From a virus (Duplodnaviria > Caudoviricetes): a stretch of 63,974 nt of DNA. Made by a program: the position numbers and the translations under genes. Below are positions 42,532-59,340 of the stretch, one piece after another (within the stretch, counting starts at the first letter, position 1; each line of letters starts with the position of its first letter). Where the stretch lies: IMG/VR virus record IMGVR_UViG_3300016484_000411, positions 1 through 63,974 of that record; one strand, written 5' to 3'. The notes beneath the pieces were generated by a model. The model saw only the letters and a list, made by a program, of their open reading frames with translations, was not told the origin of the DNA and ran no database searches.

Positions 42532-44007
42532 ATGAAAATAAAATTAATTTGTAAACAATGTGAAAAAGAATTTGATACTGAATATAAGTTCAGAGATAAA
42601 AAATTTTGTTCAAGAGATTGTTACTTTAATAGTGCTCGTCAAGGAAAAATAAAAACTGGTAAAAGCAAAGACCCAAATGTGAGAGAAACTAGAAACTGTA
42701 AAGTTTGTAATACTGAATTTGAGGTTAGGAAAAAGGACCCTAAAACTATGTGTTCTGATAAATGTAGAGTTGAATGGGGTAGTAGCGATACTATTAAAGA
42801 AAAGAGGTTAGATAGTATAAAAAAAACAACACAAGAAAAATATGGTGTTAACCACATATGGAATTTAAAAGAAATACATAAAAAAACTATAATAAATCGT
42901 GATAAACAATTATCAGTAGAAAGACAAAAAAATACACTAAGAGAAAAACATTTAGTTAATTTAATTAAAAATTTATCTAATCAAAATTTAGTCTTGCTGG
43001 ATGAATACACTACCAATAAAAACGGTAATACTTCTATATCTTATAACTTTTGTTGTACAACTTGTGGTAAAAATTTTCATTCAACTTTATTAGGTTGCGG
43101 TAGAATACCAAAATGTCCAAAATGTTACCCGAATACTAAAAATAATTCTTTAGAATTATTCATAACAGAATTTTTAGATAATAATAACATTAAATATATT
43201 ACTAATACTAGAAAAATAATAAGTAAAGAGTTAGATATTTACATACCTACACACAATTTAGCCATAGAATTAAATGGTATGTATTGGCATGGTGAATTAA
43301 ATGGTAAAAACAGAAATTATCATTTGAATAAAACAAAAGAATGTTATGAAAAAGGGATTAGATTGTTACATATATTTGATGAGGAAATAGAGACAAAACC
43401 ACAAATAGTACTATCAAAATTATCTAATATATTGGGTTTAATATCTAATAAAATTTATGCAAGAAATTGTGTTATTAAAGAAGTTGATAGTAAAACTAAA
43501 AAACAATTTTTAATAAACAATCACATTCAAGGAGACACAAAAGATAAAATAAGATTAGGGTTATATTATAAAGATGAATTAGTGTCTTTAATAACATTTA
43601 CTAATCGTAAAATAACCAAAGGTAAGTCCACTTGGGAAATAACTAGATTTGCATCAAAAATAAATTATCAAGTTGTTGGTGGGTTTTCCAAATTATTTAA
43701 ATATTTTATTAAAAATTATGAACATAAAAGAATTGTTACATTTGCTGATTTACGTTGGTCTTCATATAATCATTTAAATACTGTTTATAACAAAAATGGG
43801 TTTACATATGAATCACACACAAAACCGTCATATTGGTATTTTTTTAGACCTTATAATGATAAAAAATATCATCGTTTTACTTTTAGAAAAGATTTATTAG
43901 TTAAAGAAGGTTTTGACCCAGATAAAACAGAATGGGAAATTATGCAGGAACGTGGATTTGATAGAATATGGGATTGTGGTAATATTAAATTTATATACGA
44001 ACAATAA
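42532..44007 (+). CDS. Hef-like free-standing endonuclease: Zn-fingers, Vsr/DUF559-like nuclease and GNAT/Mom-like C-terminal domain (paralog 1)
   Basis: CxxC..FCSxxC fingers; ELDIYIP..LAIELNGMYWH; NHIQG, EITRF, TFADLR, RIWDCG. Confidence 0.8.
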   Translation: MKIKLICKQCEKEFDTEYKFRDKKFCSRDCYFNSARQGKIKTGKSKDPNVRETRNCKVCNTEFEVRKKDPKTMCSDKCRVEWGSSDTIKEKRLDSIKKTTQEKYGVNHIWNLKEIHKKTIINRDKQLSVERQKNTLREKHLVNLIKNLSNQNLVLLDEYTTNKNGNTSISYNFCCTTCGKNFHSTLLGCGRIPKCPKCYPNTKNNSLELFITEFLDNNNIKYITNTRKIISKELDIYIPTHNLAIELNGMYWHGELNGKNRNYHLNKTKECYEKGIRLLHIFDEEIETKPQIVLSKLSNILGLISNKIYARNCVIKEVDSKTKKQFLINNHIQGDTKDKIRLGLYYKDELVSLITFTNRKITKGKSTWEITRFASKINYQVVGGFSKLFKYFIKNYEHKRIVTFADLRWSSYNHLNTVYNKNGFTYESHTKPSYWYFFRPYNDKKYHRFTFRKDLLVKEGFDPDKTEWEIMQERGFDRIWDCGNIKFIYEQ

Positions 44008-44050
44008 ATTTTTATAAAAAAACGGCATATTTATAAATAAAAAAGAAATT

Positions 44051-44497
44051 ATGTCAAAAATTATAACAAAAAGACAGTTAAATACCTTAATCGAATCTAC
44101 AATGATGGAGTATGGTATGAACAAAAATGAAGATCCAAACGAATCTAATCCTAATGAAATGTCACAGGAAGATATTGATAACGCTACTAATTATGTATCA
44201 TATATGAAAGAAGATACTATGTGTGAATGTGGTGGTATGATGTATGAAGGTGTTTGTGAAGAGTGTGGGTCAACTGGTGAACACATGGAAGAAGAATTAC
44301 ATGGTAATCAATACAAGTTGGATAAAAACAAAAATAATAAGATTGATTCTGAAGATTTAGAAATGTTGAGAAAAGAAGGTTCTGTTGAGGTGTCTGTTAA
44401 TGATTTAGCTGAATCTGTTACAAAAACTATTGATACATCATTCTTAACTGAAAATATGGATAATTTTAAAAAATTAATTAATTATAAAAACAAGTAA
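44051..44497 (+). CDS. Acidic putative head protein with Cys cluster and EF-hand-like loop
   Basis: CECGG..CEECG; DKNKNNKIDSED; LIES leader. Confidence 0.6.
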   Translation: MSKIITKRQLNTLIESTMMEYGMNKNEDPNESNPNEMSQEDIDNATNYVSYMKEDTMCECGGMMYEGVCEECGSTGEHMEEELHGNQYKLDKNKNNKIDSEDLEMLRKEGSVEVSVNDLAESVTKTIDTSFLTENMDNFKKLINYKNK

Positions 44498-44501
44498 AAA
44501 T

Positions 44502-57323: not shown

Positions 57324-57349
57324 TTTCTTTATTTAGATTAATTATAAGA

Positions 57350-57381
57350 CAAATATAAGGACATTATTTTGATTAAACAAA
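57350..57381 (-). promoter_or_regulatory. Bacteroidota-type promoter TTTG-N20-TAnnTTTG
   Basis: Minus strand TTTG (57378-57381), 20-nt spacer, TATATTTG (57350-57357). Confidence 0.65.
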
Positions 57382-57549
57382 CTTTTTGTTAAAAATATTG
57401 ATTTTTTTAAATAATTTTTCTAATGAAGCTTATTAAGCTTTCTTTTAATAATATAGATAATAGCCTTTATTAAAAGGCTTAAATATTATTTTATTAAATA
57501 TTAATGATATGCGCTACAATATAAGGTAAATAATTTTACATTGTAAACA

Positions 57550-59340
57550 CTATTTATTAGACCATTCCCATTTTTTATTGCCACAATCATATATTCTATA
57601 AATCTTACGTTCTAACATAATTTGTTTTTCGGTTTTATTGGGATCAAATCCGTCTTTTATTAATTTATCTTTTCTAAAATTATATCTATGATATTTTTTA
57701 TCTTTTATAACGTAATAATAACTTGGGGTGGTATTAGATACGAATTTAAACCCTAATAAAGGGTAAATTTCACCAGTAAAATATCTATTATCAGAATAAG
57801 AAGTAATTTTATTTGGTTTATAATTATTGATAAAGAATTTAAATAATTTAGAGGCCGCACCGATAACTTGGGTATTAATTTTATTACAGTATCGAAGTAA
57901 CTCCCAAGAACCAGTTTCATTCTTAGACCCCAAAGAAATTCTTTTACTACCAAAAGTCATTAAAGATATTAAAACATCATTATAATATAGACCTATGTTT
58001 ACTTTAGAATTAACACCACCTTGTATATGATTTTCATTTAAAAACTCTTTAGAAGTCTTACTATCTATTAACTTAATCTCACATTTTCTTGCATAAAATT
58101 TCTTAGAAGAAACACCAAGTCTACTATTAATGATAGATTTAACTATTTCTGGTTTATGCACCCATTCGTCTTCAAAAACGTGAAGTAAATCAATACCCTT
58201 AGTCTTACAAGATACCGTCTTATTTAAATGGTAATTTTTATCTTTATATAATTCTGAATGCCAATATAACCCATCATATTCTATGGCTAAATTATTATCT
58301 GGTAAATAAAAATCTAATTCTAAACCTGATAACGTATTACGTTCATTTTTAATATAATTTTTACCATTTAAAAATGTCTCTAATTCTTTTTCAGATGAAC
58401 TATACTTATTACCATATGGATTACAGTTTAAACATAGTATTTTACCTGAAATACCTCTCATAGTGAAAAAATGTCTATTCATTTCAGATTCACCATCACA
58501 AACATCACAATGTATTTTACAGAAGTCCTCACCAAAGTCTAACAATTTTATTGTTGAACCATGTTTGTAATTATTTATAACGTTATTTAATTTTTTCTTA
58601 GAGATTATTTCTCTAATTGATTTATCTTTTAATATGTTATCTACATTATATCTTGATAATAATGTTTTTTTGGTTTGTTCTATATTATTATAATTCTTAT
58701 CACCATATTTTTCTTTTTTAGTTTTTTTTATTCTTTCTAAGAAGTTTTCTCTGTTAAAATTTTCCCCCCTATTATTTACGGTTTTTTTATGTACATAATC
58801 TAATTGAAGACCATGTTCTACTCCATATAATTTTAACATGGTTTCTTTTGTCTTATCTAATATCTTACTAGAGGAGAGTGGTCTTTTAACGCCATATCTT
58901 TCAGTATTAGTTAATTCTATTTTATTTTTTATAATATCAGACGATAAATGAGATGTGTGACCATATTTTTCTAGATTTGTGGTTTTTATTTTTTCTTTAA
59001 TTGTTTCATTTCTCATTGGGTGTCCACCATACTTTTTAATAAAAGTTTGTTTAATTTTATCTTTAACTTCTATATCAGAAGACTTACACGATTTAGAACA
59101 ATACATCCTATATCCAGAAGATAATCTGTCAAAACTAGTATTATTATCACAAATTTTACATTTAGGTACTATCTTTAGTTCGTTAACATAAAGATACACT
59201 AACTCTTTAAAATCAACCTCTAAACAATTCTCTTTAGCGAAATTAATGATTATATTATATAATTCTGGGTTCTCTTTATTTAATGATTTAGGTTTTAATC
59301 TAGAACCATTTCTTTTTTCTAAAAAATAATTTATATCCAT
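57550..59340 (-). CDS. Hef-like endonuclease with GNAT/Mom-like C-terminal domain (paralog 3)
   Basis: PKCKIC..YCSKSC; about 6 KYG/RYG-type repeats; ELDFYLP..AIEYDGLYWHS; NHIQG, ELLRY, SYSDNR, RIYDCG. Confidence 0.8.
   Translation of the reverse strand: MDINYFLEKRNGSRLKPKSLNKENPELYNIIINFAKENCLEVDFKELVYLYVNELKIVPKCKICDNNTSFDRLSSGYRMYCSKSCKSSDIEVKDKIKQTFIKKYGGHPMRNETIKEKIKTTNLEKYGHTSHLSSDIIKNKIELTNTERYGVKRPLSSSKILDKTKETMLKLYGVEHGLQLDYVHKKTVNNRGENFNRENFLERIKKTKKEKYGDKNYNNIEQTKKTLLSRYNVDNILKDKSIREIISKKKLNNVINNYKHGSTIKLLDFGEDFCKIHCDVCDGESEMNRHFFTMRGISGKILCLNCNPYGNKYSSSEKELETFLNGKNYIKNERNTLSGLELDFYLPDNNLAIEYDGLYWHSELYKDKNYHLNKTVSCKTKGIDLLHVFEDEWVHKPEIVKSIINSRLGVSSKKFYARKCEIKLIDSKTSKEFLNENHIQGGVNSKVNIGLYYNDVLISLMTFGSKRISLGSKNETGSWELLRYCNKINTQVIGAASKLFKFFINNYKPNKITSYSDNRYFTGEIYPLLGFKFVSNTTPSYYYVIKDKKYHRYNFRKDKLIKDGFDPNKTEKQIMLERKIYRIYDCGNKKWEWSNK

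Follow-up and report, generated by a model that had tools for sequence, protein, structure and literature searches.

Hef-like homing endonuclease genes with a Mom-family GNAT domain in a large, uncultured myovirus

What is a relative of a DNA-modifying enzyme doing at the end of a nuclease? The question is raised by the IMG/VR virus record IMGVR_UViG_3300016484_000411, a sequence of 63,974 bp and ~29% G+C whose whole length is called the window here, in which three paralogous genes, HEG1, HEG2, and HEG3, each join a nuclease domain to a C-terminal domain resembling the Mom protein of phage Mu. An earlier, sequence-only reading of this DNA had taken the three for single-chain fusions that may cut unmodified targets and modify their own. 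We are highly confident that HEG1-3 are Hef-like homing endonuclease genes (HEGs) carrying a Mom-family GNAT domain. The element that hosts them is a large, AT-rich, uncultured myovirus; because CheckV puts the record at 19% completeness, the window is probably a piece of a genome of about 300 kb.

Three Hef-like genes and their family

HEG1 (42532-44007, plus strand, 491 amino acids) immediately follows the tail sheath gene (39617-42415), HEG2 (51340-52884, plus strand, 514 amino acids) immediately follows the tail tube gene (50779-51267), and HEG3 (57550-59340, minus strand, 596 amino acids) is found between the divergent peptidase (56298-57323, minus strand) and baseplate hub (59441-60196) genes. 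The three open reading frames (ORFs) that the sequence-only reading had singled out at these positions are indeed intact paralogues, the third being on the minus strand, and in all of them a Vsr-like nuclease stands between a variable N-terminus of the Zn-ribbon/DUF7487 kind and a conserved C-domain of ~190 residues. All of the motifs that it had listed are present (D..P...IE..G.YWH, FL..NHIQG, GLY..D.L.SL..F, E..R[FY], G..SKLFK.F, [TS][FY][AS]D.R, Y...GF, and RI[WY]DCG).

In HEG1 the N-module (residues 1–200, 42532-43131) is made up of CxxC...C..C Zn-ribbon-like repeats and one KYG repeat and presumably binds the target DNA. It is followed by the EDxHD/Vsr-like nuclease domain (residues 201–300, 43132-43431) and by the Mom-like GNAT domain (residues 301–491, 43432-44004), which was recognized from an AlphaFold2 model, Foldseek, and hhalign. 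The corresponding N-module, nuclease, and GNAT parts are at 51340-52023, 52024-52314, and 52315-52881 on the plus strand in HEG2 and at 58411-59340, 58126-58410, and 57553-58125 on the minus strand in HEG3, where the N-module consists of DUF7487 repeats (Pfam E 2.1e-18). HEG2 and HEG3 align with HEG1 end to end at 39–43% identity. Compared by domain, the three proteins share 20–32% identity in the N-terminus, 40–54% in the nuclease, and 44–54% in the C-domain.

All three proteins match phrog_3339, annotated 'homing endonuclease', over their full length (E 9e-111 for HEG1, 1.1e-114 for HEG2, and 1.9e-133 for HEG3), and phrog_559 is matched as well. They are members of a widespread and already annotated family of Hef-like free-standing homing endonucleases, a kinship that the sequence-only reading had missed. 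A tblastn search of isolated phages with the HEG2 protein found 1,019 places in 415 records, and the matched features carry the annotation 'homing endonuclease' or 'Hef-like homing endonuclease'; the hosts of the phages include Vibrio, Campylobacter, Klebsiella, Acinetobacter, Salmonella, Escherichia, and Dickeya. Among the rows listed, Campylobacter phages have 10–12 matching places per genome (CPt10 has one) and the Klebsiella jumbo phages RaK2 and K64-1 have 3–4. The C-domain alone gave 939 places in 405 records of isolated phages, and the family matches extend through the GNAT domain, one depositor having named such a product 'putative nuclease/acetyltransferase protein'. The identity of a window copy to any isolated-phage copy is at most 50% by tblastn.

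The 192-residue C-domain of HEG1 was also compared by phmmer with 1.84 billion cluster representatives, clustered at 50% identity. It has 16,725 matches with E<=1e-3, of which 12,751 have E<=1e-10. Of the 150 proteins listed, all but four (144–197 residues) measure 277–984 residues, and nearly every match extends to within ~20 residues of the C-terminus. The short homologues were considered as stand-alone forms of the domain and rejected, as most start with the tail of a nuclease domain and look like fragments. Hef and Hef-like HEGs of T4-related, Campylobacter, Klebsiella jumbo, and other phages (phrog_3339 and phrog_559) are, like HEG1-3, free-standing, present in several copies per genome, and placed beside conserved genes; the architecture is the same, and the window copies are divergent members. 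In Dickeya phage LIMEstone1, for example, a Hef-like gene adjoins the tail-tube gene (PMC3296691).

Occupancy of the three sites was followed by locating the window genes with tblastn in IMG/VR relatives of the neighbouring virion genes. For tube and sheath, the 80 best loci were used out of about 600 matches each; for the hub, a single locus. Downstream of the sheath gene, 14 of the 80 loci are occupied by a HEG1-like gene at the same place and in the same orientation, 39 are empty, the next conserved gene there following 71–447 nt after the sheath gene, 6 are too short, and 21 are unclear. The site downstream of the tube gene is occupied in 6 of 80 loci, one of these holding an N-terminal fragment only; 63 are unoccupied, lacking any such gene over a distance of 1.5 kb, and another 11 are too short. 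The peptidase-hub site is empty in the one locus available (L166), in which the two genes are ~296 nt apart with no gene between them, and HEG1 is likewise absent from that contig (L087). The closest relative is L086, whose sheath C-terminus is 90% identical; its HEG1 orthologue (4586-6071, plus strand) is split within the nuclease region into ORFs of 221 and 242 amino acids, which fits the decay of a selfish gene.

The N-module behaves differently between and within sites. At the same site in other phages it is conserved to the same degree as the remainder of the protein (57–63% identity in L090, L100, L112, L115, L116, and L120–L123), with 43, 50, and 42% in the more distant occupied loci L114, L128, and L135 and 45% in L156, where the comparison covers part of the N-terminal piece only. 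Among the sites of a single genome, no other part of the protein has diverged as far (20–32% identity, against 40–54% for the catalytic domains). Because it is conserved at one site across phages and divergent between sites in one genome, the N-terminus fits a site-specific reader, i.e. a specificity module. HEG1-3 have their own ORFs in intergenic positions, outside introns or inteins. Taking together the sporadic occupancy of the sites, the intergenic position of the genes, the decayed orthologue, and the site-specific N-module, we conclude that HEG1-3 behave as free-standing HEGs, sporadic at fixed loci beside conserved genes.

Two further arrangements were seen around the tube gene of related contigs. 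A 190.9-kb contig (L080) has, directly downstream of its tube gene and in place of the fusion, a stand-alone bona fide Mom of 209 amino acids (6521-7150, minus strand; PF25680, 101.7 bits over the full profile length). In L017 (986-2596, minus strand, and 3264-4838, plus strand) and in L018 (4363-5937, minus strand, and 6599-8173, plus strand), divergent nuclease-GNAT genes flank the tail tube gene.

The nuclease and the C-terminal domain

With single window proteins, Pfam gave only sub-threshold matches to Vsr and MTES_1575 (Vsr E 0.0075 for HEG1). A profile built from 32 sequences spanning the nuclease and the C-domain (alignment A4) matched 3r3p_A, the catalytic domain of the EDxHD prototype I-Bth0305I, in an hmmsearch of the Protein Data Bank (PDB), with E 5.6e-8 across the entire domain and query residues 9–103 aligned to chain residues 7–95. 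The same structure was found by Foldseek (E 2.3e-4, TMt 0.72, 31% identity, root mean square deviation (r.m.s.d.) 3.5 over 101 columns) with an AlphaFold2 model in which nuclease and GNAT domains are joined in one confidently predicted two-domain unit (predicted local distance difference test score (pLDDT) 93.4, predicted template modelling score (pTM) 0.88). The 3r3p construct was crystallized with the mutations D196A and H213A (PMC3239194), and these alanines align opposite D235 and H253 of HEG1.

Conservation was assessed in 279 family proteins of at least 280 residues, out of 329 in hand, the 50 shorter ones being excluded; as top search matches, they are biased toward closer relatives. 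In this set, E233 is conserved in 95%, D235 in 98%, E246 in 97%, and H253 in 98% of the proteins, position 284 is D in 248 (E in P0001 itself), and position 285 is E in 239. Because both the A4 profile and the fold match 3r3p and the catalytic residues are kept, the nuclease of HEG1-3 is assigned, on sequence and model, to the EDxHD/Vsr-like homing endonuclease type, in support of the Vsr-like nuclease proposed earlier, and the domain presumably cleaves DNA.

I-Bth0305I and HEG1-3 have in common the nuclease domain, the positions of the catalytic Asp and His, and modular N-terminal DNA-binding repeats, and the target of the I-Bth0305I family is long and specific (PMC3239194). The prototype is, however, intron-encoded, has NUMOD repeats, and ends with the nuclease domain (PMC3239194), whereas HEG1-3 are free-standing, have Zn-ribbon/DUF7487 repeats, and carry the extra GNAT domain of ~190 residues. 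A closer architectural match to I-Bth0305I is found elsewhere in the window, in a nuclease-only HEG of 309 amino acids (7654-8583, minus strand) with NUMOD3 (Pfam E 1.2e-5) and a Vsr-like nuclease (MTES_1575 E 1.9e-4). Its protein matches phrog_3339 over residues 68–296 (E 3.6e-13), and its alignment with the paralogues stops short of the GNAT domain, in keeping with the earlier observation that this nuclease lacks the C-domain.

The C-domain was modelled with AlphaFold2 from 32 C-domain sequences including HEG2 (alignment A2), which gave a GNAT fold with pLDDT 92.3. In a Foldseek search of the PDB with this model, Mu Mom (8BV8) takes ranks 1–2 (E 4.3e-7, TMq 0.56, ~12% identity in the structural alignment), followed by many GNATs. 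Profile-profile comparison by hhalign of A2 with Mu Mom and 27 homologues (alignment A3, 28 true Mom proteins) gave a probability of 95.2% and E 2.6e-8 over 126 columns. Both kinds of comparison were needed because single-sequence and A2-profile searches of the PDB missed Mom: phmmer with the HEG1 C-domain found no match among PDB sequences at E<=10, and the A2 profile found glyphosate N-acetyltransferase only (E 0.0012). Alignment by hhalign with Mu Mom alone (E 0.013, 3% probability) was replaced by the comparison with the Mom family. In Pfam, 16 of the 32 A2 members match Mom (PF25680) at E<=0.01, each generic GNAT model is matched by at most 1 of the 32, and the isolated HEG3 domain scores 33.7 bits against PF25680, above the curated cut-off of 27.1 bits.

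The hhalign alignment places NH(I/L)QG on Mom H58-Y59, E..R on R111, G-G-A-S-K on S124, D.R on D149/R151, and Y...GF on Y159, the Mom residue numbers following PMC13219725 (those of the GenBank translation and of PMC7261163 run 10 lower). Mutation of any of these seven residues impairs or abolishes Mom (PMC13219725 and PMC7261163). Six of the seven are present in each of HEG1, HEG2, and HEG3, the counterpart of Y59 being I. Among the 279 family proteins, the counterparts are kept in 278 for H58, 278 for R111, 241 for S124, 266 for D149, 237 for R151, and 278 for Y159, and that of Y59 is I or L. Mom also carries an essential helix-turn-helix-like insertion between its last core strands (residues 175–209; PMC13219725), and in the C-domain model residues 134–174, ahead of the last two strands, form an additional hairpin and three short helices; the hhalign alignment ends before the Mom insertion, and the two segments are at most possible counterparts.

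These comparisons, of profiles and of a predicted fold, make the C-domain a GNAT-fold relative of Mu Mom, alike in six activity residues and possibly in an extra segment near the last core strands, and unlike it in that Mom stands alone and the C-domain is fused to a nuclease. The motif match to Mom that the sequence-only reading had drawn is thereby borne out, both by the top rank of 8BV8 and by the profile alignment. The comparison it had suggested, by HHpred or Foldseek with Mom and other GNATs, was run here as Foldseek and hhalign, and its alternative outcome, no GNAT fold, is refuted.

What the GNAT domain may do

Since the residues on which Mu Mom activity depends are kept, including the Mom-specific arginine, we judge that the GNAT domain is probably a catalytically active transferase. 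In Mom, R111 has been proposed to handle the target adenine (PMC7261163). Mu Mom transfers glycine from Gly-tRNA(Gly) to adenine N6 in double-stranded DNA (PMC13219725, 2026), whereas acetyl-CoA and iron had been proposed for it in 2020 (PMC7261163); the test of acetyl-CoA and iron binding that the earlier reading had in mind rests on the 2020 model and has been superseded, for Mu Mom, by the Gly-tRNA(Gly) demonstration (PMC13219725).

The donor side of the domain may not follow Mom. The N111-x-E113 motif is kept in 28 of 28 true Mom proteins, and the aligned positions in the fusion family are G in 277 of 279 and A in 213 or F in 45. The loop G383-G384-A385 is kept in 277, 236, and 213 of the 279 proteins, and the G-G-x-S codons, before GNAT helix 3, are at window positions 43678-43689, 52561-52572, and 57838-57849. 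From its sequence, the G-G-A loop appears to resemble the pyrophosphate-binding loop of coenzyme A (CoA)-dependent GNATs, and the first position of the classical pyrophosphate-loop motif is not Q/R in the fusion family. Because the loop reads G-G-A/F-S, closer to CoA-binding GNATs, these data suggest that the acyl donor of the fusion family differs from that of Mom.

The reading that we favour is that HEG1-3 are selfish insertions in the intergenic sites beside the sheath, tube, and baseplate hub genes that are protected from their own nuclease by a Mom-type GNAT. The N-terminal Zn-ribbon/DUF7487 array would most likely bring the protein to a long, specific target close to the gene that encodes it. 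There the EDxHD domain would cut alleles that lack the gene, and the GNAT domain would acylate or aminoacylate an adenine at, or close to, the position where that protein would otherwise cut. The resident genome would thereby become immune, and unmodified, gene-less relatives would be cut and converted, which would place restriction-modification logic inside a homing element. As a whole, mechanism included, this statement is held tentatively and falls somewhat short of probable. Self-protection of the target ranks first among the roles considered for the GNAT domain and, taken by itself, is possible but rather unlikely.

Single-chain type IIG/IIL enzymes such as MmeI combine an S-adenosylmethionine-dependent methyltransferase domain, a PD-(D/E)xK nuclease of a different kind, and a target-recognition domain. 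Recognition, nuclease, and DNA modification would be united in one chain in HEG1-3 by the same logic, an analogy alone with no claim of homology. A broader form of the favoured reading, which we think unlikely, would make Hef-type HEGs in general cut-and-modify elements, in which an acyl or aminoacyl mark on adenine gives chemical rather than sequence-based immunity. The mark could be N6-acyl-adenine, which would be new to DNA and is conceivable because the donor loop looks CoA-like (G-G-A) and not N-x-E; at a few sites per genome, such an adduct would be missed by bulk nucleoside analysis.

Several observations weigh against a self-protecting Mom-type enzyme. The replacement of the Mom N-x-E by G-G-A means that the donor, or even the reaction, may differ. 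The counterpart of S124 is replaced in 38 of the 279 proteins (14%; G, N, or D in 35) and that of R151 in 42 (15%; S in 25), so that some members of the family would be dead if their chemistry were exactly that of Mom. The link to Mom is itself uneven, as the isolated HEG1 domain scores 21.5 bits against PF25680, below the cut-off, the HEG2 domain has no match to this model at E<=1, and VIA-align ranks ordinary CoA-dependent GNATs above Mom, with GNAT N-acetyltransferases at Z 12.6–14.2 (e.g. 6yzz, r.m.s.d. 2.6 over 133 residues) and 8bv8 outside the 50 rows shown. One loosely specific Mom-type enzyme would protect a whole genome, and the several fused copies per genome (3 here and 10–12 places in the Campylobacter phage rows listed) are unlike that simple genome-protection prediction. 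The founding Hef protein, that of phage U5, studied by Sandegren et al. in 2005, reportedly cut the DNA of its own phage as well as gene-less DNA in vitro, which would bear on HEG1-3 if U5 Hef carries the GNAT domain.

The same departures from Mom lend themselves to the alternative ranked next, in which the Mom-like domain is not a transferase at all but a base-flipping clamp, a reader of modified adenine, or an assembly module, and HEG1-3 are ordinary HEGs whose own genome is immune by differences in target sequence. Loss of the invariant N-x-E loop and replacement of the Mom-essential serine and second arginine in 38 and 42 of 279 proteins would fit such a module, the most strictly kept residue shared with Mom (278 of 279) is the arginine proposed to serve the substrate base and not the cofactor, and both I-Bth0305I and the 7654-8583 paralogue work, or are presumed to, without such a domain. 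The donor-contact residues, however, are kept too (S386 in 86%, Y419 in 278 of 279, and G383-G384-A385 in 277, 236, and 213 of 279), and a pure binding module would not need them. In addition, HEG1, HEG2, and HEG3 all keep the full residue set, and the GNAT domain is conserved as much as the nuclease. We regard a catalytically silent module as an unlikely explanation.

A second alternative is that HEG1-3 are not homing elements but single-chain restriction-modification weapons, in which bulk adenine modification shields the phage from host restriction and the nuclease degrades unmodified DNA of the host or of superinfecting phages. It has been predicted in print: Iyer, Anantharaman, Krishnan, Burroughs and Aravind proposed in 2021, for jumbo-phage fusions of Mom with a restriction endonuclease (REase), that momylation guards the phage DNA and the fused REase-fold endoDNase attacks host or superinfecting DNA (PMC7824862, section 3.4.7). 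The same two domains and the same reading, modify self and cut other, are thus shared with the sequence-only reading, whose cut-and-self-protect idea had already been published as a prediction. Conservation of both catalytic sites agrees with a weapon, as does the broad anti-restriction protection that Mu Mom affords (PMC13219725), and a beneficial cargo would help to explain the persistence of intact copies.

Yet the presence/absence pattern, the intergenic placement, the multiple paralogues, and the decayed copy are typical of free-standing HEGs, the nuclease comes from a homing endonuclease family with a long, specific target, and the length and variability of the N-terminal DNA-binding arrays point to specific, rare sites and not to bulk cutting. 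Tight, low expression is suggested as well, since a strong hairpin takes in the HEG2 start codon (51340-51342). The spacer between the tube gene and HEG2 holds a 17-bp hairpin followed by a U-run (51308-51345, plus strand), whose 3' arm contains the start codon and whose RNA fold has an energy of -23 kcal/mol (z -6.4, none of 200 shuffles being equally stable). It looks like a terminator doubling as a translational mask: most transcripts would stop there, the start codon would be masked in the read-through RNA, and the nuclease would be kept scarce. On balance, we consider the weapon reading rather improbable.

A GNAT domain active on tRNA, on a small molecule, or on protein, including the nuclease itself, which would tie the nuclease to the metabolic or translational state of the cell, is very unlikely: protein N-terminal acetyltransferases are the best-scoring solved relatives by structure (Z 12.6–14.2), the GNATs TacT and FemX act on aminoacyl-tRNA (PMC13219725), and the G-G-A loop resembles CoA-dependent GNATs, but the sequence kinship is specific to Mom (16 of 32, against at most 1 of 32 for each generic GNAT model), invariance is seen for the Mom-specific arginine, and the fusion partners, a DNA nuclease and DNA-binding repeats, suggest DNA as the substrate.

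The surrounding window and what the family may mean

Expression signals were looked for across the window. Between the sheath stop (42415) and the HEG1 start (42532) lies a terminator-like hairpin with a 12-pair stem followed by a T-run (42432-42458, plus strand); the RNA folds upstream of HEG1 and HEG3 are unremarkable (z -0.98 and -0.53). The window has 16 terminator-like sites against 5.1 +/- 2.4 in shuffles, and sigma-70-like sites are below the shuffles (89 against 115). A T4-type late promoter motif, TATAAATA, was considered and dropped because it is not enriched over shuffles: its 32 matches compare with an expected 24.6 +/- 4.7, and as many are reached in 9 of 100 shuffles. Perfect bidirectional terminator-like hairpins, with stems of 11–13 bp and flanking A- and T-runs, lie between convergent genes at 45106-45130, 46907-46933, and 56265-56293.

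Elsewhere the window encodes a DNA polymerase, a helicase, an exonuclease, a dUTPase, and tail-fibre genes. Megablast of window positions 40000-60000 against phage records gave a single match of 170 nt, and the element is therefore without a close cultured relative. A second type of free-standing HEG (4268-5047, plus strand; phrog_314, E 9.3e-59) has a GIY-YIG catalytic domain, three NUMOD3 motifs, and an I-TevI-type DNA-binding domain and is flanked by an HslV-like peptidase gene and the dUTPase gene. The nuclease-only HEG at 7654-8583 adjoins a glycosyltransferase-like ORF of 418 amino acids (6342-7598, minus strand) with homologues in 137 phage records; a site-disrupting insertion had been claimed for this neighbour, and none was seen: in each of the 10 rows listed, out of 137 records, the homologue aligns without a break. 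Other large ORFs are at 30584-35455 (plus strand, 1623 amino acids) and at 15026-18442 (minus strand, 1138 amino acids) and 18870-21194 (minus strand, 774 amino acids), the last two being without a PHROG match.

No tRNA gene was found in a tRNA scan of the window, which is uninformative on a Mom-type tRNA donor. A six-frame PF25680 search of the window for a stand-alone Mom matched the HEG1 domain only, and the missing enzyme weighs little because the record is a 19%-complete fragment.

As for published work, PMC7824862 treats the jumbo-phage fusion as a restriction component, and the passage concerned makes no link to Hef-like HEGs or to mobility; by tblastn, the Klebsiella jumbo phages RaK2 and K64-1 carry homologues of HEG1-3. 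The Mom profile of PMC13219725 was built from Mom-domain-only sequences, and in the main text of that paper the words fused, fusion, homing, and Vsr do not occur. Among the 15 papers listed of 265 that a literature search matched, none links Hef-like homing endonucleases with Mom, GNAT, or acetyltransferase, and a search on Campylobacter phage nucleoside chemistry gave nothing usable on modified adenine. The single mention of Mom-REase fusions found in print is a computational prediction (PMC7824862). The architecture and the hypothesis are thus known, and neither the equation of this architecture with the Hef-like homing family nor an experiment on the GNAT domain was found in these searches.

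For the window alone, the outcome is an ordinary annotation, three Hef-like HEGs. Of moderate interest is what a Mom-type enzyme domain does in thousands of homing endonucleases, and whether these carry a working DNA-modifying enzyme can now be tested directly because the chemistry of Mom, dependent on Gly-tRNA, is known. If the GNAT domain is inactive, a DNA-modifying fold would have been reused as a binding module. If it is active, selfish nucleases would have a new way to spare their own genome, probably leaving site-specific DNA adducts, and the family may offer programmable enzymes that either cut or mark their target.

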